Counted from the stretch's first letter, positions 6,616 to 31,152 are shown. The stretch is 43,273 nt of DNA from Lachnospiraceae bacterium (GCA_024403635.1 JAKSRL010000001.1:1-43273), one strand, 5' to 3'. Numbers and translations are program-made. The notes: a model not told the origin generated them from the letters alone.

Positions 6616-7479
6616 TTACGGGACGGCGTCGTACTTCGAGCAGACAAAGGCGGCGGTTTCGGAGGCCTTTGCCAGGCAGGAGTCAATGTCGGAGCTCTTT
6701 AGATACTCGCTTAGGAAGGTGGCGGAAAAACTGTCGCCGGCGCCGACGGTGGAAACCACATCCGCAGGAACCGCCGGGCATTGATAAAACAAATTATTTT
6801 CGCGGTCATAGGCGTAGGAGCCATTTTCGCCGAGCGTTATCAAAATGATCTTCAGGGCAGGGAATATGTCCGTCATCTGAAGCAGAGTTTTTTCATAAAA
6901 GAAGGAGTTGACGATGCCGAGGGCGTCGGTCACGAGCGGGAGTTCTTCGCCGCTGACCTTCAGGATGGTGGCGTGTTCCAGAGCGAAGCGGATGACTTTG
7001 TTGGAATAAAAAGGCGCACGAAGGTTGATGTCTACGAAAATTTCCCGGAAGGAGTTGTTGGCAAGAATCGCGCGGAGAGAAGCGAGATTGTAGTCGCTGC
7101 GCAGGGCTAAGGAGCCGAAGTAGAGAACCGCTCCGTCTGCGCAAATGTTGCCGTCAACGTCCACAACCTTAAACGCATCAATATCATCCCAAGCGACATC
7201 TGTCTGCAGATCATAGCTTGGCAGGCCGGTATCGTCCAGCGTTACCAGGCATGCGCCGGTAGGTAGGAGCGAAGTCTTTACATAGTCCGTGCGGACATTT
7301 TTTCCCTGCATCCATTCCAGAGCGTCTCGGCCGTTTTCATCGTCGCCAACAGCGGAGATCATATAAGTCTCGTTGCCTTGCAGAGCGAAGTGGGCAGCAA
7401 AATTTAGCGGTGCGCCGCCGATGCATTTGCGCTCCGGATATACGTCATATAGAATTTCTCCAAAAGAATATAGAGCCAT
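6616..7479 (-). CDS. PfkB-family carbohydrate kinase (fructokinase-like)
   Basis: N-terminal LYSFGEILYDVYP...GGAPLNFA and the PfkB signature VSTVGAGDSFSATF. The track start at 7500 is GTG; I prefer the ATG at 7479 (MALYSFGE). Confidence 0.8.
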   Translation of the reverse strand: MALYSFGEILYDVYPERKCIGGAPLNFAAHFALQGNETYMISAVGDDENGRDALEWMQGKNVRTDYVKTSLLPTGACLVTLDDTGLPSYDLQTDVAWDDIDAFKVVDVDGNICADGAVLYFGSLALRSDYNLASLRAILANNSFREIFVDINLRAPFYSNKVIRFALEHATILKVSGEELPLVTDALGIVNSFFYEKTLLQMTDIFPALKIILITLGENGSYAYDRENNLFYQCPAVPADVVSTVGAGDSFSATFLSEYLKSSDIDSCLAKASETAAFVCSKYDAVP

Positions 7480-7499
7480 ATTTTTGTTGTGGGCAATCA

Positions 7500-7617
7500 C
7501 CGCGAAATCGCGCGTCTCGCAGTCAGCAAGGGCCCGCGAACCTCAAATCGCGCGTTCATAAAAGTAAAGGCCCGCGAACCTCAAATCGCGCCTCGCAGAA
7601 AGCGAAGCCCTGCGACC
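7500..7617. repeat. three degenerate tandem ~38-nt units
   Basis: TCAAATCGCGC...GGCCCGCGAACC occurs three times. The 23-mer GGCCCGCGAACCTCAAATCGCGC is exact at ~7531-7553 and ~7569-7591. It lies between the stop of the 7619-8059 gene and the fructokinase start. Confidence 0.7.
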
Positions 7618-7618
7618 T

Positions 7619-8059
7619 TTAATGAAACAGATTAAAATTCGTAACTAAAAGATAAACCAGAAAGATGAGCAGTGGAATGCAAACAACGAGGGCGAGAATC
7701 TCCCACCATTTCCATTCTCGTTTGGTGCCGTTGCGCTTCCGGTCGTCGCGCTTTAACAGCGCCAGCGGATCCTTACCGCCGTCCAGGCGCCGGAAAAAAT
7801 CCTTCAGCTTCTTCATGTCGTCGTCCGTGCAGAAGGTGTTGGCCTCAGTGTCGTCGTGGGCAATCTGGTTGCGGACATGGCGAAGGTGCTTTAAGGTCTT
7901 GTAATCATCATTCCAACCGGAAATGCGGCTAGCACCGTAAGACTTCTTCTCCATCTCCCTCAGATAATCGTTGACACCTTCGTTGCTGTGATAAATCTCG
8001 CAGCAAAGACGGTTCATTTTTTTATATCCCTCAATAAATCGGTTGTCAATTTTATGCAT
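7619..8059 (-). CDS. hypothetical protein with C-terminal membrane anchor
   Basis: ATG start. C-terminal WWEILALVVCIPLLIFLVYLLV transmembrane segment. No family recognised. Confidence 0.5.
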   Translation of the reverse strand: MHKIDNRFIEGYKKMNRLCCEIYHSNEGVNDYLREMEKKSYGASRISGWNDDYKTLKHLRHVRNQIAHDDTEANTFCTDDDMKKLKDFFRRLDGGKDPLALLKRDDRKRNGTKREWKWWEILALVVCIPLLIFLVYLLVTNFNLFH

Positions 8060-20135: not shown

Positions 20136-20834
20136 ATGCTTCTAGAATATTTTAAAAGATATATAAAGGTATCGCGTGGTGTTACGGATAAATCAGTGAA
20201 ACATTATGTCACGGGAATAAATACGATAAATTCTTTATTAAAGAAATATGATTATCCAATTAAAAATGTATTTGAAGTAAATAGCATTGAAGAACTGGAT
20301 GACATTTTACTTTTTTTAACAAGTAATGAGGAGTTTGAGAGAAAAGATTCAGTCGGACATAATATGTATAGTGTAGCTTTTAAGCATTTTTACAGTTTTG
20401 CAAAAGAAGAAACAAACTTTTTTGGAAATAATATAGAAACAATGGATATGGTTGTGGAAATTCCGAAACAATCAACATCTACAACAACAAAGTGGAATAG
20501 AAATCAAATACTGATCACGCAAGCTATTGAGGGAGCTCACTATTTATGTGAGCATAATCGCAATCATGAAACTTTTATTTCAAAAGCAACTGGTAAAGCT
20601 TATATGGAAGGCCATCATCTCATTCCACTAAAATACCAGAAATCGTTTTCTCACAGCATAGATGTTTATGCAAATATTGTTTGTCTTTGTCCGATATGTC
20701 ATAGATTGCTTCATTATGGAACGGATAAAGAAAAATCTTATGCAGCTGAAGAACTTTTTGACACAAGACAAGAAAGACTCGAAAACAGCGGAATAGATCT
20801 ATCGAAAAAAGAGTTTTTGGAACTTGTTATATAG
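20136..20834 (+). CDS. HNH endonuclease with an uncharacterised N-terminal domain
   Basis: C-terminal MEGHHLIPL...NIVCLCPICHRLLHYG is an HNH/His-Me finger with a Cys pair. The N-terminal ~110 aa are not assignable. Confidence 0.75.
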   Translation: MLLEYFKRYIKVSRGVTDKSVKHYVTGINTINSLLKKYDYPIKNVFEVNSIEELDDILLFLTSNEEFERKDSVGHNMYSVAFKHFYSFAKEETNFFGNNIETMDMVVEIPKQSTSTTTKWNRNQILITQAIEGAHYLCEHNRNHETFISKATGKAYMEGHHLIPLKYQKSFSHSIDVYANIVCLCPICHRLLHYGTDKEKSYAAEELFDTRQERLENSGIDLSKKEFLELVI

Positions 20835-20845
20835 GAACTTGTTAC

Positions 20846-21262
20846 ATGGATAAACACACGCCAGAGCAGCGACGCAAAAACATGCAAGCTGTAAAAAATA
20901 AAGATTCGAAAATTGAACTATTGCTTCGAAAAGAACTATGGAGCAGGGGATTGCGATATCGAAAAAACACCAATAAAGTTTTTGGACATCCAGACATAGT
21001 TTTTATTGGAGAAAAAGTTGCAGTATTTTGCGATAGCGAATTTTGGCATGGATACGATTGGGAGAATCGAAAAAAAGATTTTAAATCAAATCAAGATTTT
21101 TGGATACCGAAGATAGAACGAAATATACAAAGAGATATTGAAGTGAATGAAAGACTTCATATGGACGGATGGATCGTTTTAAGGTTTTGGGGAAAAGAAA
21201 TTAAAAAAGACCCTAAGGGTTGTGCAGATATAATTGAAAGGGTGGTAAGACACGATGAGTAA
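20846..21262 (+). CDS. vsr: very-short-patch repair endonuclease
   Basis: TPEQRRKNMQAVKNKDSKIELLLRKELWSRGLRYR...PDIVF...VAVFCDSEFWHG is the canonical Vsr pattern. Overlaps the downstream Dcm gene by 8 nt. Confidence 0.9.
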   Translation: MDKHTPEQRRKNMQAVKNKDSKIELLLRKELWSRGLRYRKNTNKVFGHPDIVFIGEKVAVFCDSEFWHGYDWENRKKDFKSNQDFWIPKIERNIQRDIEVNERLHMDGWIVLRFWGKEIKKDPKGCADIIERVVRHDE

Positions 21263-22259
21263 ATATAAATCAATTGATTTATTTGCAGGCATTGGCGGAA
21301 TAAGAATGGGATTTGACAATGTTTTTGGAGAAGATATCGAAACCGTTTTTGTTTCAGAATGGGATGAGCCTGCACAAAAAACATATAAAGCTAATTTTCA
21401 AGATGATTTTGAAATTGCCGGAGATATTACAAAAGTTGATGAAAAAGATGTTCCTGGATTTGATATTTGTCTTGCAGGCTTCCCTTGCCAGGCATTTAGC
21501 CTTGCCGGACAAAGAAAAGGATTTGATGATGACTATAAAGGTAACTGCAGAGGAACACTTTTCTTAGATGTTGCGCGTATTTGTGAATACCATAAACCAA
21601 AAGTTATTTTTTGTGAAAATGTAAAAGGCTTGGTAATACATGATAAAGGAAGAACCTTTAAGATTATTACAAAAACCTTTGAAGACTTAGGATATAAAGT
21701 ATTTTATAAAATTTTAAATTCTAAAAATTTCGGTGTTCCACAAAACCGAGAAAGAATATATATTGTTGCATTTAGAAATGATATTGCACCTGAAACTTTT
21801 GAGTTCCCGGAAAAAACAGACGATACAAAATGTCTTTGGGATATCAAAGAGGAAAAACCTGTTCCGGCAAAATATGATTTGAGCGATGTCTACGTTGAAA
21901 CTCTTCGTAAACACAAAGCTCGTCATGCTGCAAAAGGAAATGGATTCGGTTATGAAATTCGCGATTGGAGCGATGTCGCAGGAGCGATTGTATGCGGCGG
22001 AATGGGAAGAGAAAGAAATCTGGTAATAGATAAAAGACAGAAAGATCTTGTTCCAACAACTCATATTAAAGGTGAAATCAATAAAGAGGGAATTCGAAAA
22101 ATGACTCCACGTGAGTGGGCACGTTTGCAGGGATTTCCAGACAGTTTTGTGCTTCCTTTAGCGGATACACATCTTTACAAGCAGTTTGGAAATAGCGTAA
22201 CGGTAAATGTAATTGAAGCTATTGCAAGGGCGATAAAGAAGGTACTGGATGAAGGTTGA
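21255..22259 (+). CDS. dcm: DNA (cytosine-5)-methyltransferase
   Basis: m5C MTase motifs: I DLFAGIGG, IV GFPCQAFS, VI ENVKG, VIII QNRERIYIV, X QFGNSV. Confidence 0.92.
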   Translation: MSKYKSIDLFAGIGGIRMGFDNVFGEDIETVFVSEWDEPAQKTYKANFQDDFEIAGDITKVDEKDVPGFDICLAGFPCQAFSLAGQRKGFDDDYKGNCRGTLFLDVARICEYHKPKVIFCENVKGLVIHDKGRTFKIITKTFEDLGYKVFYKILNSKNFGVPQNRERIYIVAFRNDIAPETFEFPEKTDDTKCLWDIKEEKPVPAKYDLSDVYVETLRKHKARHAAKGNGFGYEIRDWSDVAGAIVCGGMGRERNLVIDKRQKDLVPTTHIKGEINKEGIRKMTPREWARLQGFPDSFVLPLADTHLYKQFGNSVTVNVIEAIARAIKKVLDEG

Positions 22260-23400
22260 ATCAATTGAAGGAAAAAAATTGAATAAAGGCGAATGGGCCG
22301 AGTTTTATGTATTACTCAAATTACTGGGAGAAGGTCGACTTTATACCGCTGATTCAAAGCTGCGAAAAGATAGTGAGAGTTTTCTGGATATCTTGAAAGT
22401 AATACGTCAAGAAGATGACACATCTGTTCTGGAATACGTTATTGATAGAGATAACAATCAGGTTGTAATAAATGAACAAGGAAAGGGGACTCTTGATAGT
22501 ATACCAGCAGCGGATTTTGCAGATAATGCTCAAATATTATTTGACGGAATAAATAAAACAAAAGGAAATTCTGTTCCAGCACCGAAGGCAGTATGTGATT
22601 TTGCAAAAGAGATTTATGTAAGCAAACCTAAAGCTCCGTCAGTAAAAACGCTTAAGAAGCAATTTGGCGGAAAAAGCGATATTTTTATTGAGGCAAGAGA
22701 TGGAAAAACTTCTGTTACTTCGGTCATGGGATTTTCAATAAAGTCAAGATTTGGTCAAAATCCAACTTTGTTTAATGCAGGATCATCATCACAGTTCTTA
22801 TACAAGTTAGAAAATTGCAATGACGAATTAATGACAGAATTTAATGCCATATCTGATGGTGGCGGACGAGGCTGGGGATTGTGCAAAGAATATTTGTTAC
22901 TTCATGGTATAACAATGCAATTCACCCAAACACAGAATCCGATTTATAACGACAATTTATTTTTGGTCAGAGAGTCCATGAGTAAAATTTTAGCCTGGTG
23001 TGCAAAAGACCGTTTGATAGATTCTCAAAGTGATTATGAAGTATTAGAGACTGTTAAGAGAATGACAGCTGCAAACCCTCTTCATGTACCAAATGCACCA
23101 GTATATTACGAAAAAGCAATGAAAGACTTTTTGATGGCAGGATTCACAGGAATGACGGCAGGAAAAGTTTGGGATGGAAAAGAACAGGTAAATGGTGGAT
23201 ATATTGTTGTAATGGATGATGGAGATGTTCTTTGCTATCATTCCAACGACCGAGAAGCGTTTAGAGATTATTTATATAAAAACACTTATTTTGAATATGT
23301 CAGTGCAGATAAATATTGCTGGAGCCGTATTCAAAAAATAGATGGAGAGTATTATCTGCCGTTAAATATTTCGGTAAGGTTTAATAAGAAAATTAGGTAA
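22249..23400 (+). CDS. type II restriction endonuclease, HpaII-like (RE_HpaII family)
   Basis: Overlaps the MTase stop by 11 nt. The N-terminal NKGEWAEFYVLLKLLGEGRLY and the central GFSIKS..GQNPTLFNAGSS match my recollection of the HpaII endonuclease family. Size is 383 aa. Confidence 0.65.
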   Translation: MKVESIEGKKLNKGEWAEFYVLLKLLGEGRLYTADSKLRKDSESFLDILKVIRQEDDTSVLEYVIDRDNNQVVINEQGKGTLDSIPAADFADNAQILFDGINKTKGNSVPAPKAVCDFAKEIYVSKPKAPSVKTLKKQFGGKSDIFIEARDGKTSVTSVMGFSIKSRFGQNPTLFNAGSSSQFLYKLENCNDELMTEFNAISDGGGRGWGLCKEYLLLHGITMQFTQTQNPIYNDNLFLVRESMSKILAWCAKDRLIDSQSDYEVLETVKRMTAANPLHVPNAPVYYEKAMKDFLMAGFTGMTAGKVWDGKEQVNGGYIVVMDDGDVLCYHSNDREAFRDYLYKNTYFEYVSADKYCWSRIQKIDGEYYLPLNISVRFNKKIR

Positions 23401-23488: not shown

Positions 23489-25306
23489 ATGGATGGTCAA
23501 GCAAGAGAGTTTATGTGGATAAAAGATGCGGGAAAACTGGAAGTGCCTTTTTTCCAACGTCCTTATGTTTGGGATGAAGAAGATTTTACGGCATTAATTG
23601 AGAGCTTTCTTGACGCACCGGGAAAAACAATGCCATTTTTTGGAAGCGTTATCTTTAAAAAAATAGGGGATGAAGAAAATAGTTATCACTTGATAGTAGA
23701 TGGACAACAAAGAATAACTACTTTTAATATTCTTATAAGAGCATTGCTTGATTTAAGAGGAATCAACGCTTTTCAAATAGCACCAACAATAGAACAGGAT
23801 CTTAAATATGTTCTGTATAATATTGAAGTCGATGATGAAGGAGTTGAAAATTATGAATTAAGACTTGTTCCGTCGAATTCTGACAAAAAGTCATTTGAAC
23901 AGATCATGGACGTAAGTTCAAAACGTCCTTTAGATATTGATACGCTTGGAGACACACCAATCGAAAAAGCTTATACCTTTTTCTACACCTATTTTTCAAG
24001 CGATAAAGAGCGTGCTAAAGAATTTTGTATACGACTTTACAATAAAAATAAAAGCATGATTTATATTATTCTTGATAATAAGGATGATGAACAAAAAATA
24101 TTTGACTCAGTGAATAGCTTGGGAAAGGTGCTGTCAAATTCTGACATTATAAAGAATTATTTATTCCAAAAATTAAAGGAAAAAGCAGGAAATGATTCAG
24201 TCCAGCAAAAAGAAGTTATGGACTTATATTACAAATATTGGGATGCTATTTTTTATTCGGCTGATAAAAAGACCTTTGGGTATACAAAATTCACGGTCGG
24301 AAGGATAACAACAGACCACCTGGAAAGCTTGTTAAAAGATGTGGCAATTGTAAAAAAAATATATGCAGCCAAAAAGACAACTGGTACGTATGGTCTTTGT
24401 AATGCATATAAAAACTATATTAATGATTTGGATAATGTTCAACTCAAAGAATTGGTTAAGGATATTTATTCATATGCAGAGGTATATTATAAATATAAAA
24501 CAGAGTATGCGGATTTAAAACGATTTGCTTGGGATGATGCTAAAAACAGATTGTTGTTGATTTTTGATGTATTGGAAACATCAACTTTCAATCCGTATTT
24601 GTTGAAGCTTTTTAAAGAAAATGCTTCCGACATGGAAGAAAAGATGTTGAGATTGGAAAAATTCTTCTTAACACGTTTCATTTATGAAGCGAAAACTAAA
24701 AACTATAATCAGTGTTGCGAAGGCCTGATAAATGCGATAGATGATGAAATATATTTTAATGAATATATGAAAGAATCGCCTCCAGATTCAACATCATATA
24801 AAAATAAATTCCGAAAATTAACGAATAAACAAGGCGTACTATTCTTATTCCTGATAGAGATGTTAATTAGAAGGGGACAAGAAGATAAATATTCAGATGT
24901 ATTGAATATAGGACTATATACGCTCGAGCATATTATGCCTCAAAAATGGAACACCAATAATGACTGGTTTAAGGTTCCATCATACGATGAGAACGGAAAA
25001 CAAATTGATACAGGGAATATGCAGGCCTTTTTGGATAATAGGAATTCAGCGGTTGGCTCCATTGGCAATTTTGCGCTGCTGACTGCAAAATTAAATTCAT
25101 CCGTTAGTAATAGTTCTTTCGAGATTAAAATTAATGGAAACGGAAAGAAAAACGGACAAGGCATAAAAGCATATGCAGCAGCACTTGCAACAACAAAAGC
25201 TGTTATTGATATTTATGACAGTAGTGCTAACTGGGATGAAAAAAATATCTATAAAAAAGAAAAAGAATACTTTGGTTTATTGAATGATTTTTATGGATTT
25301 GAATGA
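23489..25306 (+). CDS. GmrSD-family type IV (modification-dependent) restriction enzyme, DUF262 + DUF1524
   Basis: The N-terminal FFQRPYVWDEEDF and VDGQQRITT are DUF262/ParB-like NTPase motifs. The C-terminal LEHIMPQKW ... GNFALLTAKLNSSVSN is the DUF1524 His-Me finger. TGGAGG RBS. Confidence 0.85.
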   Translation: MDGQAREFMWIKDAGKLEVPFFQRPYVWDEEDFTALIESFLDAPGKTMPFFGSVIFKKIGDEENSYHLIVDGQQRITTFNILIRALLDLRGINAFQIAPTIEQDLKYVLYNIEVDDEGVENYELRLVPSNSDKKSFEQIMDVSSKRPLDIDTLGDTPIEKAYTFFYTYFSSDKERAKEFCIRLYNKNKSMIYIILDNKDDEQKIFDSVNSLGKVLSNSDIIKNYLFQKLKEKAGNDSVQQKEVMDLYYKYWDAIFYSADKKTFGYTKFTVGRITTDHLESLLKDVAIVKKIYAAKKTTGTYGLCNAYKNYINDLDNVQLKELVKDIYSYAEVYYKYKTEYADLKRFAWDDAKNRLLLIFDVLETSTFNPYLLKLFKENASDMEEKMLRLEKFFLTRFIYEAKTKNYNQCCEGLINAIDDEIYFNEYMKESPPDSTSYKNKFRKLTNKQGVLFLFLIEMLIRRGQEDKYSDVLNIGLYTLEHIMPQKWNTNNDWFKVPSYDENGKQIDTGNMQAFLDNRNSAVGSIGNFALLTAKLNSSVSNSSFEIKINGNGKKNGQGIKAYAAALATTKAVIDIYDSSANWDEKNIYKKEKEYFGLLNDFYGFE

Positions 25307-25371: not shown

Positions 25372-26427
25372 ATGTCAATAGAGATAATTGATCTTTTTTG
25401 CGGTATTGGCGGTTTGACCCGAGGTTTGATAGATTCGGGACTTAACGTGGTAGCAGGATTTGATATTGATCCTACTTGCAAATATACATATGAGCATAAC
25501 AATAAAGTGCCGTATTGTATGCAGAATATAAGAGAAGTGCAAGCGGAAGATTTAGAAAAAAAATATACAGAAAATGCAACAAAAATTCTTGTTGGCTGTG
25601 CTCCCTGTCAACCTTTTTCAAAGATGCGTTTTAAATTAGGGGAAGCAAATGAAAGCGATGAAAAGTATAACCTTTTATTGGAATTTGGAAGGCTAATTGA
25701 AGAAGTTCAACCAACTATTATTTCAATGGAAAATGTACCCCAAATTAAAGAAACTGATATTTATTCGCAATTTATTCAGGTTTTAGAAAGAAATGGTTAT
25801 CATTATAGCGATAAAGTAGTATACTGCCCTGATTATGGTATTCCTCAATCGCGACGCAGATTTGTTCTTGTTGGTTCTCTGCTTGGGCCAATAGAATTAA
25901 TCCCTCCGACTCATCGACGCGAAGATGTTAATGTCAAAGATTTTATTGGTGGGTTACCACATATTGAAGCGGGAAAAACTGACCCAGATGATCCATTGCA
26001 TCGTTCAGCAGCTTTATCTGAAACAAATTTAAAGAGAATTAAGGCATCTAAACCAGGTGGAACCTGGCACGACTGGCCAGAGAATTTAAGATGCCCATGT
26101 CATACAAAAGAATCTGGGAAAACATACAGCTCAGTATATGGGAGAATGTCTTGGGATAAAATTGGACCAACTATTACAACTCAATTTTACAGCTTTGGCA
26201 CGGGAAGATATGGGCATCCAGAGCAGGACCGCGCATTATCTCTTAGAGAAGGCGCATTACTACAAACATTTCCGATAGATTATGACTTTATTGACCCAGG
26301 CAAGAGGTTTGTTTTTGGGGATATAGCGAGACATATAGGAAATGCAGTTCCTGTTAAGTTGGGGGAAGTAATTGGAAAAACTATAGTGAATCATTTAGCA
26401 GACAATAATGTTGGAGAGGAAGAATAA
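25372..26427 (+). CDS. DNA (cytosine-5)-methyltransferase (second copy, different lineage)
   Basis: Motifs DLFCGIGG, GCAPCQPFS, ENVP, QSRRRFVLVG, IGNAVPVKL. A long variable region lies between motifs VIII and IX. Confidence 0.9.
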   Translation: MSIEIIDLFCGIGGLTRGLIDSGLNVVAGFDIDPTCKYTYEHNNKVPYCMQNIREVQAEDLEKKYTENATKILVGCAPCQPFSKMRFKLGEANESDEKYNLLLEFGRLIEEVQPTIISMENVPQIKETDIYSQFIQVLERNGYHYSDKVVYCPDYGIPQSRRRFVLVGSLLGPIELIPPTHRREDVNVKDFIGGLPHIEAGKTDPDDPLHRSAALSETNLKRIKASKPGGTWHDWPENLRCPCHTKESGKTYSSVYGRMSWDKIGPTITTQFYSFGTGRYGHPEQDRALSLREGALLQTFPIDYDFIDPGKRFVFGDIARHIGNAVPVKLGEVIGKTIVNHLADNNVGEEE

Positions 26428-28321
26428 CGTGGAAAGAGATTATACATTAAAAGTAAGTCCAAGAATGCTTGAATTACTAAGCAAAGATCTATATACCAAT
26501 ATGTATTTTGTTTTGGCAGAACTAATAGCAAATGCCTATGATGCGGATGCGGAAAATGTTTATATTTTTATTGATGACAACGAGATTCGAGTAGAGGACG
26601 ACGGAGATGGTATGTCTGGAGATATTCTGGATGAAAAATATTTGCTTGTTGGGGGAGAATCAAGAACATGCGAGGACGATGCCAAAACTGTACAAAAGAA
26701 AAGGCTGAAAATGGGAAGAAAAGGCATTGGAAAACTGGCAGCATTGTCTATATCTGATGGGTTTAAATTAATTACAGTTCAAGAGTCTAAGCCAATAGGT
26801 CTTTTTATTCCTCATAGAATTGAGCACGATGATGAAAAACTGAAAGTATTGTCATCCAAAGAATATGAATTAAAAAAAATAACGAATAAAGGCACAGCTA
26901 TTATTATGGAAAATCCGAAAGTAACTATTCCAAAACTGCATGAAACTGTGCTAAATAATCTTGCAAAAATTTTTCCAAATAATATAGCGGATTTTAACAT
27001 ATATGTAATATATAAAGGAAATTCAAAAAAACTTGTTCCAGACGAAAAAAAAGTTATAAATCGTTTAGGAACGTTTATGTCAATTGGAAATGAAAAAAGG
27101 TATTTAGAAGAGGAACTTTCTAAAGAAGATAAAAGTCTTCAGATTTTGCAACGCGATGCGATTACGCAAACAATAGAAATGTTAAATTCGAAAAATGAAC
27201 TTCAGTCCTTAGATGTAAGAATATATGGTTGGATAGGAACATATAAAACTTCTCGAGGAATGAAAAAGGAAATTAACGAGTTTTCGGACAACTATTTAGC
27301 TATTTTTGCGCATAATAAAATGGGACTTAGGAATGTGCTTCCTATTGTTAGCAGAAATAGAGTATATGAAAATTATATTGTAGGGAATTTGTACATTGAT
27401 GCTTTTGAGGCACCTGATTTTCCTGATATGGCAGGTACTAATAGACAAGGGTATAATGAAAACGATTTGAGATGGAAAACGGCACTTGAATATATTAGAA
27501 ATATTGTCGATGAGATAGTCAAATCGCACACACAATTTGCAACTATGGAAAAATCTTTAAAGGAAGCTGAAAAAGAATCAAAAAAAGAAGCTGCAGAAAA
27601 AAAGCTAAAAGAAAAACTTGATTCAACTACAAAAAATATTGTTCAAAATTTAGTGCAGAAAATTCAAGAACCAAATTCGGGAGATACTATTGAAAAATAT
27701 GTATCTGACGAACTGGAAACTATAAAGCCTCTGTTAGGCTTTAAAGCAACTGTTGATGCAAATAAGAAAAAGATAATGATTAGTCAAACCTTAAACGATA
27801 TGCCGGTTTCTAATGTGATATACCAGAGTTTATTATTTAATGGTGTACCTAAGGAGGACATAATATATTCAAATGGTCCTGATCCTGAAACAAATCTACC
27901 AGAAAAGGATATTTATGGATATTTACAGAAGTTTTTTGTTCAAAGTGCATCATCTGAAATGATATATGTTTTATTTGTTACAAGTAAGAATGTAGTAAAC
28001 GTTGATCCGAATTGTCCTTCTGTTAGTTGGGGAGAGTTGATGGAAATTGGGGCTGCGTGGGTAACAAGGAAGGACCATTGGGTATTTAATGTGGATGGAT
28101 TTAAGCCAGAACCACCATTAAACATATCAAATAAATGGGTTGATTTTTATACGATAGCAACTGAAGACGGAACAAAAATCTTGTCTTTAACAGAAGCGAT
28201 GGCGAATAGTTTTTGCAATAAAATATTAGAAACTTGTCAAGTATGTGGATATACTCCAAAGACTTTTGAGGAAAACAAGAAAAATTTAATAGACAACTAC
28301 ATAACGATTCATAATATTTAA
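26408..28321 (+). CDS. GHKL (HATPase_c_3, MORC-like) ATPase with coiled-coil and C-terminal TIR-like domain
   Basis: Bergerat motifs: ELIANAYDAD (N box), EDDGDGM (G1), GRKGIGKLA (G2). A K/E-rich coiled-coil KSLKEAEKESKKEAAEKKLKEKL follows. The C-terminal KKIMISQT...IIYS...IYVLFVTSKN...SVSWGELMEIGAAW fits a TIR/DUF1863-like pattern. The start is either ATG 26408 (20-nt overlap with the Dcm gene) or GTG 26429 (after GGAGAGG). Confidence 0.75.
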   Translation: MLERKNNVERDYTLKVSPRMLELLSKDLYTNMYFVLAELIANAYDADAENVYIFIDDNEIRVEDDGDGMSGDILDEKYLLVGGESRTCEDDAKTVQKKRLKMGRKGIGKLAALSISDGFKLITVQESKPIGLFIPHRIEHDDEKLKVLSSKEYELKKITNKGTAIIMENPKVTIPKLHETVLNNLAKIFPNNIADFNIYVIYKGNSKKLVPDEKKVINRLGTFMSIGNEKRYLEEELSKEDKSLQILQRDAITQTIEMLNSKNELQSLDVRIYGWIGTYKTSRGMKKEINEFSDNYLAIFAHNKMGLRNVLPIVSRNRVYENYIVGNLYIDAFEAPDFPDMAGTNRQGYNENDLRWKTALEYIRNIVDEIVKSHTQFATMEKSLKEAEKESKKEAAEKKLKEKLDSTTKNIVQNLVQKIQEPNSGDTIEKYVSDELETIKPLLGFKATVDANKKKIMISQTLNDMPVSNVIYQSLLFNGVPKEDIIYSNGPDPETNLPEKDIYGYLQKFFVQSASSEMIYVLFVTSKNVVNVDPNCPSVSWGELMEIGAAWVTRKDHWVFNVDGFKPEPPLNISNKWVDFYTIATEDGTKILSLTEAMANSFCNKILETCQVCGYTPKTFEENKKNLIDNYITIHNI

Positions 28322-28732: not shown

Positions 28733-28735
28733 AGA

Positions 28736-28762
28736 AAGCACCCTGGCTGGGTGCTTTTTATT
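28736..28762 (+). terminator. rho-independent terminator
   Basis: 8-bp stem AAGCACCC/GGGTGCTT with a 5-nt loop, then TTTTTATTATT. Confidence 0.75.
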
Positions 28763-29240: not shown

Positions 29241-30341
29241 ATGATTACAAAATTCTCTGTTCAAAATTTTAAGGGCTTTCAGGATAATTTTACTTTTGAT
29301 TTAACACAAAGCAATTATGAGTTTAATCAGGGTGCAGTAAGAAACGGTATTGTTAATAAGGGCCTGATATATGGTTTTAATGGATGTGGAAAGTCAAATT
29401 TGGGACTTGCGATTTTTGATTTAGTTTTGCATTTAACAGATAAACAAACGATTATTGGAAAATATCCGGTATATTTAAATTTGGACTCTAATGAAAAATA
29501 TGCTTCTTTTTCATATTCTTTTGTTTTTGATGGTGTTCTGGTTGAATATTCTTATACAAAAGTTGATCCACAAGTTTTAAGAACAGAAGAACTGATAATA
29601 AACGGAGAACCGGTTATTGGTTATGATTTTGAAAAAGAAACCGGATTCAGCAACCTTGATGGAACGCAAAATCTACGCTTAAATTCTCCGGATAGCAGGC
29701 TTTCAAAATTAAAGTTTATTAAAAACAATGCCATTTTAGCTGAAAACGAAACCAATTTAATTTTTATTAAATTTATGGATTTTGTGGAAAGAATGTTATT
29801 GTTTTATAGCTTGGATGGAAATGCATATCAAGGATTTACACTTGGAGTAGAATCTTTAGATGATGTTATTGTGAAAGAGGGAAAATTAAAAGACTTTGAA
29901 AGATTATTAAAAAAAGCAGATATTAATATGAATTTAGAGTCTCAGTTAATAAATAATCAAAATGTCATTTTTTCAAAATACAAAAATGGATTGATACCTT
30001 TTGAACGTTCTGCTTCGCGAGGAACTAATTCTTTAGAATTATTTTATTTTTGGTATATAAGAATGTCAAAAGCTTCCTTCGTTTTTATTGATGAGTTTGA
30101 TGCATTTTATCATTACGAATTATCAGAGCTAATTATCCGGGAATTATTAAAATTATACGATACACAAATCATCTTAACGACTCATAATACAGATCTTTTA
30201 ACAAATGATTTACTCAGACCAGACTGTTATTACATTATGAATCCTAAGAATATTGTTTCTATTGCAAATTCTACAGAAAAAGAATTAAGAAAAGCGCATA
30301 ACTTGCAAAAAATGTTTAAGGCGGGAGCTTTTAATGAATAA
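29241..30341 (+). CDS. ABC-type AAA ATPase (AAA_15/AAA_21-like; AbiLi/AriA/RloA-like)
   Basis: Walker A GFNGCGKSN, signature-like SASRGTNSL, Walker B FVFIDEFD, H-loop TTHN. The N-terminal FSVQNFKGF is typical of SMC/RecF-like defence ATPases. Confidence 0.8.
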   Translation: MITKFSVQNFKGFQDNFTFDLTQSNYEFNQGAVRNGIVNKGLIYGFNGCGKSNLGLAIFDLVLHLTDKQTIIGKYPVYLNLDSNEKYASFSYSFVFDGVLVEYSYTKVDPQVLRTEELIINGEPVIGYDFEKETGFSNLDGTQNLRLNSPDSRLSKLKFIKNNAILAENETNLIFIKFMDFVERMLLFYSLDGNAYQGFTLGVESLDDVIVKEGKLKDFERLLKKADINMNLESQLINNQNVIFSKYKNGLIPFERSASRGTNSLELFYFWYIRMSKASFVFIDEFDAFYHYELSELIIRELLKLYDTQIILTTHNTDLLTNDLLRPDCYYIMNPKNIVSIANSTEKELRKAHNLQKMFKAGAFNE

Positions 30342-31152
30342 AGACCTTATTGCAATAATTGTTGAAGGGGAATCTTATGAAAAAGGTATTATTAAAAACA
30401 TTGAAAAAGTTTTCCCTTTAGGCAGACAAATATATGAAGTATTTACTTTGCCGGCAGGTCAAAATATTTATATGCTCTGGAAAAAGATGAAGGAAGACGA
30501 GTTTGAAACCGACATTATAGAAGTCCTACGAGATAGTTGTAAATCCTTGGAACGAGAGCTGAGCCCATTTACAAGGGATTCATTTAGTGAAGTATACCTT
30601 TTCTTTGATTATGATGCACATCAACAAAATTTAGAATCAGGAATAGATGCAGATGAAGTTCTTGTGGAAATGCTCGAATCATTTGATAATGAAACCGAAA
30701 ACGGGAAACTGTATATAAGTTATCCAATGGCAGAGGCAATCAGGGATTTTATTCCAGAAACTTGTAAGGCATTTTCTGGTGATTGTTTTATTAATTTTCA
30801 AGTAACTGGTTACAAACGCAAGTCTACCTACAAAGAGGATGGGACTGCGAGTAAGACACAAGCAATCAGTAAATATAATCATGATGTTTGGGTCAATGTA
30901 TTGACTTGCTTTGTTGAACGATTAAATTGCTTAAGAAATGATGAACAAAGGTTAAGCATGATTGAGTGCAAAAAATATACTCCGATAGATGTTTTTAGAT
31001 TACAACAATCAGTAATATTAAGTGAAGAATGTTTAATGATATTAAGCGCATTTCCTGAGTTTATTATTGATTATTTTAAAGAAGAGTATCTATCTAATTT
31101 CATTAACACTAGAGAAATAGATTTAATAAAATGCGATAAAAATGATAAATAA
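30334..31152 (+). CDS. RloB/DUF4435-like TOPRIM protein (AbiLii/AriB-like)
   Basis: Overlaps the ATPase stop by 8 nt. IAIIVEGESYE (TOPRIM Glu) and LFFDYDAH (DxD) lie at the expected spacing. YISYPMAEA resembles the RloB SNPCFE region. Confidence 0.6.
   Translation: MNKDLIAIIVEGESYEKGIIKNIEKVFPLGRQIYEVFTLPAGQNIYMLWKKMKEDEFETDIIEVLRDSCKSLERELSPFTRDSFSEVYLFFDYDAHQQNLESGIDADEVLVEMLESFDNETENGKLYISYPMAEAIRDFIPETCKAFSGDCFINFQVTGYKRKSTYKEDGTASKTQAISKYNHDVWVNVLTCFVERLNCLRNDEQRLSMIECKKYTPIDVFRLQQSVILSEECLMILSAFPEFIIDYFKEEYLSNFINTREIDLIKCDKNDK

Follow-up and report, generated by a model that had tools for sequence, protein, structure and literature searches.

In a 43,273-nt stretch of DNA from a Lachnospiraceae bacterium (GCA_024403635.1, JAKSRL010000001.1:1-43273; hereafter the window), a cytosine-5 (m5C) DNA methyltransferase gene is followed, on the same strand, by a gene for a 630-residue protein in which a GHKL ATPase is joined to a predicted TIR domain. 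We refer to the two genes and their products as Dcm2 and GHKL-TIR (Table 1). Homology, structural models and the gene neighbourhoods of relatives suggest that they form a restriction-modification (R-M)-like defence cassette, in which the sensing of unmethylated DNA may switch on an NAD+-consuming effector. As a preliminary description made from the sequence alone had noted, the second reading frame either begins 1 nt beyond the first, at GTG 26429, or overlaps it by 20 nt if ATG 26408 is used; the junction reads ...GGAGAGGAAGAATAAcGTG.... We regard the GTG as the better start because it is preceded by a Shine-Dalgarno sequence, fits the N-termini of homologues and agrees with the database gene call (P0001, 630 aa); residues are numbered from it throughout.

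Table 1 Positions of the Dcm2/GHKL-TIR pair, of the parts of the two genes and of neighbouring features, counted from the first nucleotide of the window
Feature	Position	Strand	Basis or remark
Dcm2, m5C DNA methyltransferase, 351 aa	25372-26427	+	Open reading frame (ORF) list; PF00145, TIGR00675
TAA stop of Dcm2	26425-26427	+	Translational-coupling junction with the GHKL-TIR gene
Shine-Dalgarno sequence GGAGAGG, in the 3′ end of Dcm2, 9 nt 5′ of GTG 26429	26413-26419	+	Sequence read
GHKL-TIR gene, 630 aa from GTG (alternative ATG 26408, 637 aa)	26429-28321	+	ORF list
GHKL (Bergerat-fold) ATPase domain, aa 1-200	26429-27028	+	HATPase_c_3, motifs, Foldseek
N-box E31/N35, ELIANAYDAD, aa 31-40	26519-26548	+	Invariant in 58 homologues
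G1 DDGDGM, aa 57-62	26597-26614	+	Invariant in 58 homologues
G2 GRKGIGKLA, aa 96-104	26714-26740	+	Invariant in 58 homologues
Transducer/S5-like middle domain, aa 201-346	27029-27466	+	NF050001, BLASTP, fold alignments
Lys/Glu-rich helical linker, probably coiled coil, aa 347-444	27467-27760	+	AlphaFold2 (AF2) secondary structure
Predicted SpbK-like TIR domain with C-terminal extension, aa 445-630	27761-28318	+	phmmer, profile, PADLOC, Foldseek
First TIR strand and loop, KKIMISQTLND	27767-27799	+	Sequence
GAA codon of E539 (E546 in the 637-aa ORF)	28043-28045	+	Aligns with SpbK catalytic Glu E192
HNH endonuclease-like gene	20136-20834		Upstream m5C R-M unit (20136-23400)
Vsr	20846-21262		Upstream m5C R-M unit; overlaps Dcm1 start
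Dcm1	21255-22259		Upstream m5C R-M unit; starts and stops overlap
HpaII-family restriction endonuclease (REase)	22249-23400		Upstream m5C R-M unit; overlaps Dcm1 end
GmrSD-family Type IV (modification-dependent) REase, GmrSD_N + GmrSD_C	23489-25306		Ends 65 nt before Dcm2
NUDIX/MutT-like gene, 128 aa	28346-28732		Starts 24 nt past the GHKL-TIR stop
Intrinsic-terminator-like hairpin, 11-bp stem and T run	28733-28759	+	Terminator scan; first strong one downstream, after NUDIX
PDC-M12 pair (PADLOC candidate system)	29241-31152		AAA_21/AbiL-like ATPase overlapping a 272-aa partner
Schlafen AlbA_2 + HATPase_c_4 + HTH protein, 549 aa	17447-19096	-	At or just beyond the low-GC edge
Membrane-anchored NERD-domain protein, 213 aa	31746-32387	+	At or just beyond the low-GC edge

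Domain architecture of the two proteins

As an m5C methyltransferase Dcm2 is complete, and it belongs to the M.HgiDII/DrmMII-type subfamily. It matches PF00145 from end to end (E = 3e-57) as well as TIGR00675, and its top PADLOC model is DrmMII (PDLC02651, E = 3e-97). Motifs I (DLFCGIGG), IV (PCQPFS), VI (ENV), VIII (QSRRR), IX (REGALLQTFP) and X (GNAVP) are all present, which bears out the full motif set previously claimed for this reading frame.

According to sequence and model, the N-terminal half of GHKL-TIR is a GHKL ATPase followed by a transducer/S5 domain. HATPase_c_3 matches residues 32–160 (E = 4e-19), and the three Bergerat-fold motifs picked out in the preliminary description are not only present but invariant among 58 homologues (40–81% identity); the invariant residues are E31, N35, D57-G59-G61 and G96-G101. 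The middle domain carries invariant motifs of its own (GWIGTY, HNKMG with K297, and TNRQGY), and a Pfam search with the middle 220 aa returned no meaningful domain, even at E-values up to 10. In an AF2 whole-chain model built on the homologue alignment (mean pLDDT 83), the first ~450 residues match Hsp90 N+M, MORC2/3, the N-terminal domain of MutL and GyrB43 (Foldseek, E 1e-11 to 1e-13 over 410–455 columns). The nearest sequence family of the GHKL-S5 module is the HgiDII type, not MORC. Beyond it, the Lys/Glu-rich region that had been described as a coiled coil is modelled as one long helix (residues 347–412) and two further ones (418–431 and 433–444).

The last ~190 residues had been read as a TIR domain of the ThsB/DUF1863 kind on the strength of the strings KKIMISQT, IIYS, IYVLFVTSKN and SVSWGELMEIGAAW. 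All of these fall within a TIR fold, and the assignment to TIR stands; the affiliation has to be revised, as sequence and model both make the domain SpbK-like rather than ThsB/DUF1863-like, and of the predicted NADase type. By sequence it is detected only with the PADLOC spbK model (E = 1.5e-11) and with SpbK itself (PDB 9phb; phmmer E = 1e-4 for the single sequence and 1.3e-9 for the family profile), while the Pfam models TIR, TIR_2 and DUF1863, run on the isolated C-terminal 256 aa, gave no TIR-clan match even at E-values up to 10. GHKL matches dominated the Foldseek search with the whole chain, and we therefore modelled residues 425–630 separately (pLDDT 78, pTM 0.77). The isolated domain had 9phb_A as its sole strong match (E = 4e-8, probability 1.0, TM 0.73), followed by weaker matches to TIR-STING, TIR-1 and SARM1.

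SpbK is an NADase TIR protein that aborts SPβ infection, with E192 as catalytic residue and with N191, G194 and W197 of helix C building a filament interface required for activity (PMC12847820). The helix-C segment LNEMGATW of SpbK corresponds to LMEIGAAW in the window protein, which places E539, G541 and W544 opposite E192, G194 and W197; all three are invariant in the 58 homologues. The preliminary description had singled out both glutamates of WGELME for mutation, and it is the second (E539, or E546 in the 637-aa frame) that is conserved and aligns with E192; the first is not conserved. All ATPase motifs and the equivalent of the TIR catalytic glutamate are thus intact. The first TIR strand is followed by a loop that reads S-Q-T-L-N-D in the window protein, I-S-Q-T/S-x-x-D in the family consensus and S-H-T-K-A-D in the Listeria member, compared with HxSxD in SpbK.

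Descent and linkage to one methyltransferase subfamily

Sequence comparison indicates that both genes descend from a Type II R-M pair of the HgiDII/BbrUII type (HgiDII site GTCGAC). Residues 12–424 of GHKL-TIR match positions 1–403 of the 659 in NCBIfam NF050001 ('BbrUII/HgiDII family restriction enzyme'), scoring 202 bits against a curated cutoff of 550, so that the protein falls outside full-length membership; true members match from end to end (745 bits for the Azotobacter vinelandii protein L086 and 730 bits for P0167). A BLASTP alignment of the N-module with an HgiDII-type REase gave 29% identity over 383 aa (E = 2e-34), and the generic REase_II models of PADLOC cover just the N-terminal 60% of the window protein. 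Judged by these matches, the GHKL and middle domains together are a module common to HgiDII-type REases. In 15 HgiDII-type C-termini we found a conserved PD-(D/E)xK core (GRxDIxY-x12-IIELKR...Q..KY), which is absent from the window protein, where the TIR fold holds that position. Since the N-module is shared and true members end in a nuclease, GHKL-TIR is an HgiDII-type chassis whose nuclease has been swapped for a coiled coil and a TIR domain. For R.HgiDII itself, a 2008 description gave a GHKL domain and left the C-terminal domain unassigned (PMC2441816). As a few relatives had given weak TIR matches, we considered whether HgiDII-type C-termini could be cryptic TIRs and rejected the idea: true ones have a clear PD-(D/E)xK core, and the weak matches had come from a separate TIR_2-type lineage.

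An HMMER search of 1.8 billion representative proteins with the N-module (E up to 1e-3) retrieved 3451 relatives, and 38 of the best 150 match an SpbK-like TIR query, fragments and a few weak matches included. We took 71 full-length relatives (~640–720 aa) in which phmmer finds no SpbK-like TIR and scanned their C-termini with Pfam: 12 carry SduA_C, six PDDEXK_4 or PDDEXK_14, 12 TIR_2 or TIR, and one (P0250) a second, HK-type HATPase_c. If the model holds, this distribution would show effectors swapped on one GHKL ATPase chassis. The TIR detected by Pfam TIR_2 marks a sister lineage of Dcm-linked GHKL proteins (~670–720 aa; L082, L072, L070, L067, P0216 and ~20 other representatives), whose hosts include Veillonella parvula and Streptococcus oralis and whose signature is F[IL]SHxxxDK...C[ML]FE[GA]GAxWAT (CMFEGGAGWAT). 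Phage records yielded N-module relatives and no full-length GHKL-TIR. One such relative, annotated 'ParaMORC3', lies in Escherichia phage PhiR44_1 (PV340563.1, 8017-9063; 28% identity over 57% of the query), from which we conclude that GHKL-effector defence genes of this chassis also ride on phages.

GHKL-TIR itself is widespread, and conservation of the pair extends over more than 10 phyla. A scan of 185,579 species genomes, from which the best 80 loci were kept, gave a full GHKL-TIR in ~50 of them, spread over Bacillota, Bacteroidota, Proteobacteria, Spirochaetota, Planctomycetota, Lentisphaerota, Actinomycetota, Patescibacteria, Elusimicrobiota and one Nanoarchaeia metagenome-assembled genome (MAG); the hosts include gut Clostridia, Bacteroides, Listeria monocytogenes and many Proteobacteria. 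More than 100 clusters of full-length homologues exist, named only 'ATP-binding protein'. At 35 of the ~50 genome loci a Dcm lies within 700 nt of GHKL-TIR, and every one of these belongs to the Dcm2 subfamily, sharing 42–71% identity with Dcm2 from end to end. The Dcms that accompany bona fide HgiDII-type REases are also of this subfamily (45–55%; 50% at L086), as against 22–34% for most other Dcms at the same loci (26% for Dcm1 of the window) and 25–29% for the partners of the TIR_2-type lineage, which are thus of a different subfamily.

The adjacent Dcm usually stands upstream on the same strand, overlapping GHKL-TIR or separated from it by 0–30 nt. In the tractable representative Listeria monocytogenes FDAARGOS_57 (NZ_CP030101.1, about 1,893,257-1,896,252), a Dcm 50% identical to Dcm2 is followed after 5 nt by a 644-aa GHKL-TIR. 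Other arrangements occur, convergent ones among them, with the Dcm downstream on the same strand (L005), on the opposite strand (L016, L042 and L049) or, for a Dcm of the same type, 2.7 kb and 0.9 kb away (L043 and L047, respectively). The linkage to one Dcm subfamily is tight and phylogenetically robust across gene order, strand and operon context. GHKL-TIR is frameshifted in L047 and L049, with the Dcm intact in L049 and carrying one frameshift near its start in L047; this fits the usual course of R-M decay, in which the toxic partner is lost and the methylase kept. Vsr, a repair nuclease that is the usual companion of m5C methylases, is the only recurrent extra gene beside the pair (33 of 87 loci, often immediately 3′ of GHKL-TIR). 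In Dethiosulfovibrio peptidovorans (L005), a 351-aa DUF4917 protein is encoded directly upstream of GHKL-TIR, Vsr and Dcm (6904-7959); it occurs likewise in two metagenome contigs (L006 and L007) and was seen at none of the other loci. Taken together, the homology of the N-module to HgiDII/BbrUII REases, the M.HgiDII-type methylase and the near-universal synteny support the earlier view of the pair as a nuclease-less R-M-like module, and the neighbourhood survey that had been proposed as a check came out in its favour.

M.HgiDII is an experimentally defined 5mC methylase acting on GTCGAC (PMC5867850). An apparent two-fold depletion of GTCGAC/TCGA sites in the window turned out to be an artefact of both-strand palindrome counting in the shuffles and is uninformative.

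Thirteen further loci, and L055, in which the gene is interrupted, have no Dcm within ±7 kb; according to PADLOC and Pfam their neighbours are class 1 DISARM genes. In all, at least 16 GHKL-TIR homologues sit in class 1 DISARM operons, 14 of them at genome loci (L012, L017-L022, L028, L030, L046, L050, L053, L055 and L061) and two at L090 and L091. The order is DrmD, DrmMI (an MmeI-like m6A methylase), GHKL-TIR, DrmA, DrmB and DrmC (PLD, HxKxxxxD), and at most of these loci the start of GHKL-TIR overlaps or abuts the stop of DrmMI. Between a DISARM copy and one from a simple Dcm pair, identity reaches as much as 85%. We rejected the possibility that GHKL-TIR in DISARM is independent of an m5C methylase when wider contexts (±10 kb) revealed, in both cases available, a gene of the Dcm2 subfamily in the DrmMII position at the 5′ terminus of the operon (46% identity to Dcm2 at L091 and 50% at L090). 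In one sub-variant, GHKL-TIR has DrmMI on one side and a second DrmD-like SNF2 gene on the other, and next comes a gene for a ~570-aa protein that lacks annotation and matches nothing in Pfam or PADLOC. At L090, GHKL-TIR is closely preceded by an AspBHI_N + Mrr_cat gene (5mC-dependent type), and genes for NERD-UvrD_C and Vsr follow further downstream in the same operon. The DISARM literature we searched contains no description of GHKL-TIR as a component. DrmMII of the Serratia class 1 DISARM methylates MT(5mC)GAK, with a TCGA core as in GTCGAC.

A further arrangement is an operon found at L094 (6584-14634) and L095. It opens with a Dcm that shares 52% identity with Dcm2 and continues with two small ORFs, an OLD-family nuclease (AAA_15 + TOPRIM), GHKL-TIR, a protein of 662 aa and Vsr. 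From end to end, the 662-aa product shows 45% identity to the HgiDII-family REase of Azotobacter, and it contains the motif DIAYRTMAGKHIIVELK. Three different putative effectors would thus stand under one methylase, and TIR and nuclease paralogues side by side are what one would expect if both read the same mark with different outputs.

The same operon bears on whether GHKL-TIR is instead a true restriction enzyme, its TIR acting on nucleic acid at or near unmethylated sites, as a nuclease or by NAD+-dependent ADP-ribosylation, and so inactivating foreign DNA directly. The TIR sits exactly where the HgiDII-type paralogues have their PD-(D/E)xK nuclease, the SQTxxD loop is unlike the HxSxD of SpbK, and hydrolysis of DNA or RNA has been reported for some plant TIR domains. 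A role as nuclease or in ligand binding was suggested for the TIRs of paraMORC4, a computationally predicted GHKL family (Iyer et al. 2008). We nevertheless consider an action on DNA rather improbable: the nearest relative by sequence and fold, SpbK, is a demonstrated NADase, the NADase catalytic glutamate and the filament-forming helix-C residues are invariant, and with a bona fide nuclease paralogue already present in the L094 operon, complementary outputs fit better than redundant ones.

A proposed mechanism and its rivals

We infer that Dcm2 and GHKL-TIR are a two-gene R-M-like defence cassette in which the sensing of unmethylated DNA gates a TIR NADase and leads to abortive infection, a reading to which we give somewhat better than an even chance. 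Dcm2 would mark self DNA by methylating a short palindrome, probably one with a TCGA core such as GTCGAC. GHKL-TIR would be held as a dimer by its coiled coil, and its N-terminal ATPase clamp would engage DNA that lacks the mark. ATP-driven dimerisation and clustering on unmethylated DNA would then bring the TIR domains into head-to-tail two-stranded assemblies, the form in which TIR NADases are activated (PMC12847820). The resulting NAD+ hydrolysis would arrest or kill the infected or methylase-less cell, by abortive infection or post-segregational killing and not by DNA cleavage. A precedent for the coupling is VcSduA, the GHKL-nuclease of V. cholerae, whose ATPase and nuclease are both essential and whose effector is proposed to be under the control of a clamp-like middle domain (PMC12137116).

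Several points weigh against this reading. The region of GHKL-TIR that would read DNA is hypothetical, and in orthodox Type II enzymes recognition often lies in the nuclease domain, the very part lost here. The chemistry could differ, given the loop SQTxxD in place of the HxSxD of SpbK. On one 12-kb contig (L096) the sole Dcm is of a different subfamily (30% identity), and at L008 an intact GHKL-TIR lies downstream of a Dcm of full length whose coding sequence is broken into three frames; this locus comes from a MAG of ~15× coverage, and the break could mark a pseudogene or have arisen in assembly. In the Serratia class 1 DISARM, the only one studied, deletion of both methylases caused no autoimmunity, and that operon is not known to carry GHKL-TIR. 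The trigger of SpbK is a phage portal protein, YonE, sensed through a four-helix bundle, and not DNA (PMC12847820). We found no experimental work on any GHKL-TIR member in the literature, and its DNA binding, methylation sensing and NADase activity are inferred.

Some of these observations would also fit a methylation-independent sensor-effector in the manner of VcSduA/Shedu or SpbK, which would respond to a phage protein, to free DNA ends or, as a guard, to interference with the methylase; the Dcm linkage would then reflect ancestry, co-regulation or hitch-hiking within islands instead of self-marking. The portal trigger of SpbK, the function of VcSduA as a single gene, the missing autoimmunity in Serratia and the possibly broken Dcm of L008 all speak for such a sensor, as does the high identity between DISARM and simple-pair copies, which implies that the protein moves between operon contexts. 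Yet one Dcm subfamily has been kept through changes of gene order, strand and operon and through ~40% protein divergence, and hitch-hiking is disfavoured because it would not select a single subfamily. Start/stop overlaps are, moreover, typical of obligate partners, and the proven homologue R.HgiDII depends on methylation. We therefore judge methylation-independent sensing unlikely, though far from negligible.

If the methylation-gated cassette is real, it joins methylation-based discrimination of self and non-self with NAD+ depletion by TIR, two pillars of immunity that are usually treated separately. It would also exemplify effector swapping on a common GHKL sensor chassis, where one and the same site is occupied by a nuclease, a TIR or a kinase-like ATPase, and provide a DNA-activated TIR enzyme for comparison with the protein-activated SpbK and the eukaryotic MORC ATPases. 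The presence of GHKL-TIR in class 1 DISARM operons matters in its own right, since the effector mechanism of DISARM is debated. A more far-reaching proposition combines R-M logic leading to suicide by a TIR-filament NADase, which would make this the first R-M-type system with NAD+ depletion as its "restriction" step, with two additions, an unrecognised effector arm in DISARM and a cut-and-kill arrangement with HgiDII-type nucleases under one methylase; we advance it tentatively, at rather less than even confidence. The family has remained invisible in censuses of defence systems because annotation pipelines label its members "ATP-binding protein" or partial "Type II REase".

The surrounding island and comparison with known systems

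The pair lies in a low-GC stretch of the window (~20–31 kb; GC 0.29–0.40, compared with mostly 0.44–0.52 outside) that also encodes an HNH protein, Vsr, Dcm1, an HpaII-like REase, a GmrSD Type IV enzyme, a NUDIX gene and a PDC-M12 pair. The preliminary description had stated that no nuclease accompanies the methyltransferase. This is correct for the pair and its conserved relatives, and needs qualifying for the island, whose nucleases (HpaII-like REase, GmrSD, HNH protein and Vsr) are parts of separate systems. In Eubacterium siraeum and in further gut Clostridia (L001-L004, L009 and L054), the Vsr/Dcm/HpaII block likewise precedes the GHKL-TIR pair, and this recurrence indicates that the composite island travels together.

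The NUDIX gene downstream matches the PADLOC candidate PDC-S07 (E = 5e-42); its top NCBIfam models are those of Nudix hydrolases and pyrimidine (d)NTP diphosphatases, all under their cutoffs. The terminator scan found none between 28321 and 28346, and as the first strong terminator lies 3′ of NUDIX, the transcript of the pair may include this gene. The 1-kb stretch that holds it has a GC of 0.40 and is less AT-rich than its island neighbours; given this and the homologue loci without it, NUDIX may be a flanking core gene, and a link to 5-methyl-dCTP or ADP-ribose (ADPR) metabolism is speculative. In the PDC-M12 pair, the 366-aa ATPase matches PDC-M12A (E = 7e-141) and the 272-aa partner PDC-M12B (E = 3e-65). 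When homologue loci were compared, none of HNH, GmrSD, NUDIX and PDC-M12 recurred beside the pair, and we rejected them as functional partners. At the edges of the island, the Schlafen AlbA_2 protein and the NERD protein both belong to families common in defence islands; the window contains no tRNA or integrase at the island borders.

A further rival is a Thoeris-like scheme, in which the TIR would make a cyclic ADPR-type messenger that activates an unlinked effector. SpbK does yield N1-cADPR besides ADPR (PMC12847820), and one homologue (L089) adjoins ThsB_TIR and TIR_2 genes. However, the pair is not accompanied by a conserved third gene that encodes a ligand-sensing effector domain, Vsr being the only extra gene that recurs, and none of the eight island proteins scanned matches a ThsA-type model, which leaves messenger signalling very improbable beside the direct NADase output that we favour.

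PADLOC, which the preliminary description had suggested running, did not assign the pair to a named system: among named-system models only the single-gene spbK matched, and only to the C-terminal part, the rest being generic REase_II. From Thoeris proper the locus differs in that the eight island proteins contain no match to ThsA (PADLOC) or to SIR2/SLOG (Pfam), and genes of these kinds do not recur at homologous loci. Class 1 DISARM (DrmD-DrmMI-DrmA-DrmB-DrmC ± DrmMII) harbours GHKL-TIR homologues, usually right after DrmMI, whereas the window holds a bare two-gene cassette; the DrmA, DrmB, DrmC and DrmD models found no match among the same eight proteins. SpbK of the Bacillus subtilis element ICEBs1 supplies the nearest TIR in both sequence and fold; the catalytic Glu is shared, as are the Gly and Trp of helix C and a helical region ahead of the TIR. 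SpbK is, in contrast, a 266-aa single-gene system with neither an ATPase nor a methylase partner, and its own sensor is entirely different.

VcSduA, a validated defence protein (PMC12137116) of Shedu type I-D ('paraMORC3', GHKL + DUF4263 nuclease), is similar in that a GHKL ATPase and a clamp-like middle domain control a C-terminal effector, and 12 relatives of the window N-module carry SduA_C. It differs in that its effector is a nuclease, that it stands alone without a dedicated methylase and that it protects directly and not by abortive infection. In the HgiDII/BbrUII Type II R-M, an m5C methyltransferase of the same subfamily likewise lies directly upstream of a ~630–670-aa GHKL protein with a homologous N-terminal ~400 aa and Vsr is a frequent third gene; the window protein departs from it in having a coiled coil and a TIR in place of the C-terminal PD-(D/E)xK domain.

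The preliminary description knew of no named system with this architecture, and our literature search found none either; database entries for the protein read 'ATP-binding protein' or 'hypothetical protein'. The architecture is nonetheless not unprecedented in silico, because paraMORC4, a family of GHKL + S5 + TIR proteins, was predicted computationally in R-M-type neighbourhoods (Iyer, Abhiman & Aravind 2008, PMC2292703), in a paper that the preliminary description had cited only for GHKL proteins at R-M loci. That family has never been studied by experiment. paraMORC4 shares with the window protein the GHKL, S5/transducer and TIR domains and the cytosine methylases and Vsr nearby. Its TIR loop is Hx[ST]xD, compared with S-Q-T-L-N-D here, where only the Asp is conserved, and the published loop is better suited by the sister TIR_2-type lineage; this comparison was made by motif, since the text of that paper lists no accessions. 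In conclusion, the GHKL-TIR/Dcm pair is uncharacterised, widespread and mechanistically interesting, and not categorically new.

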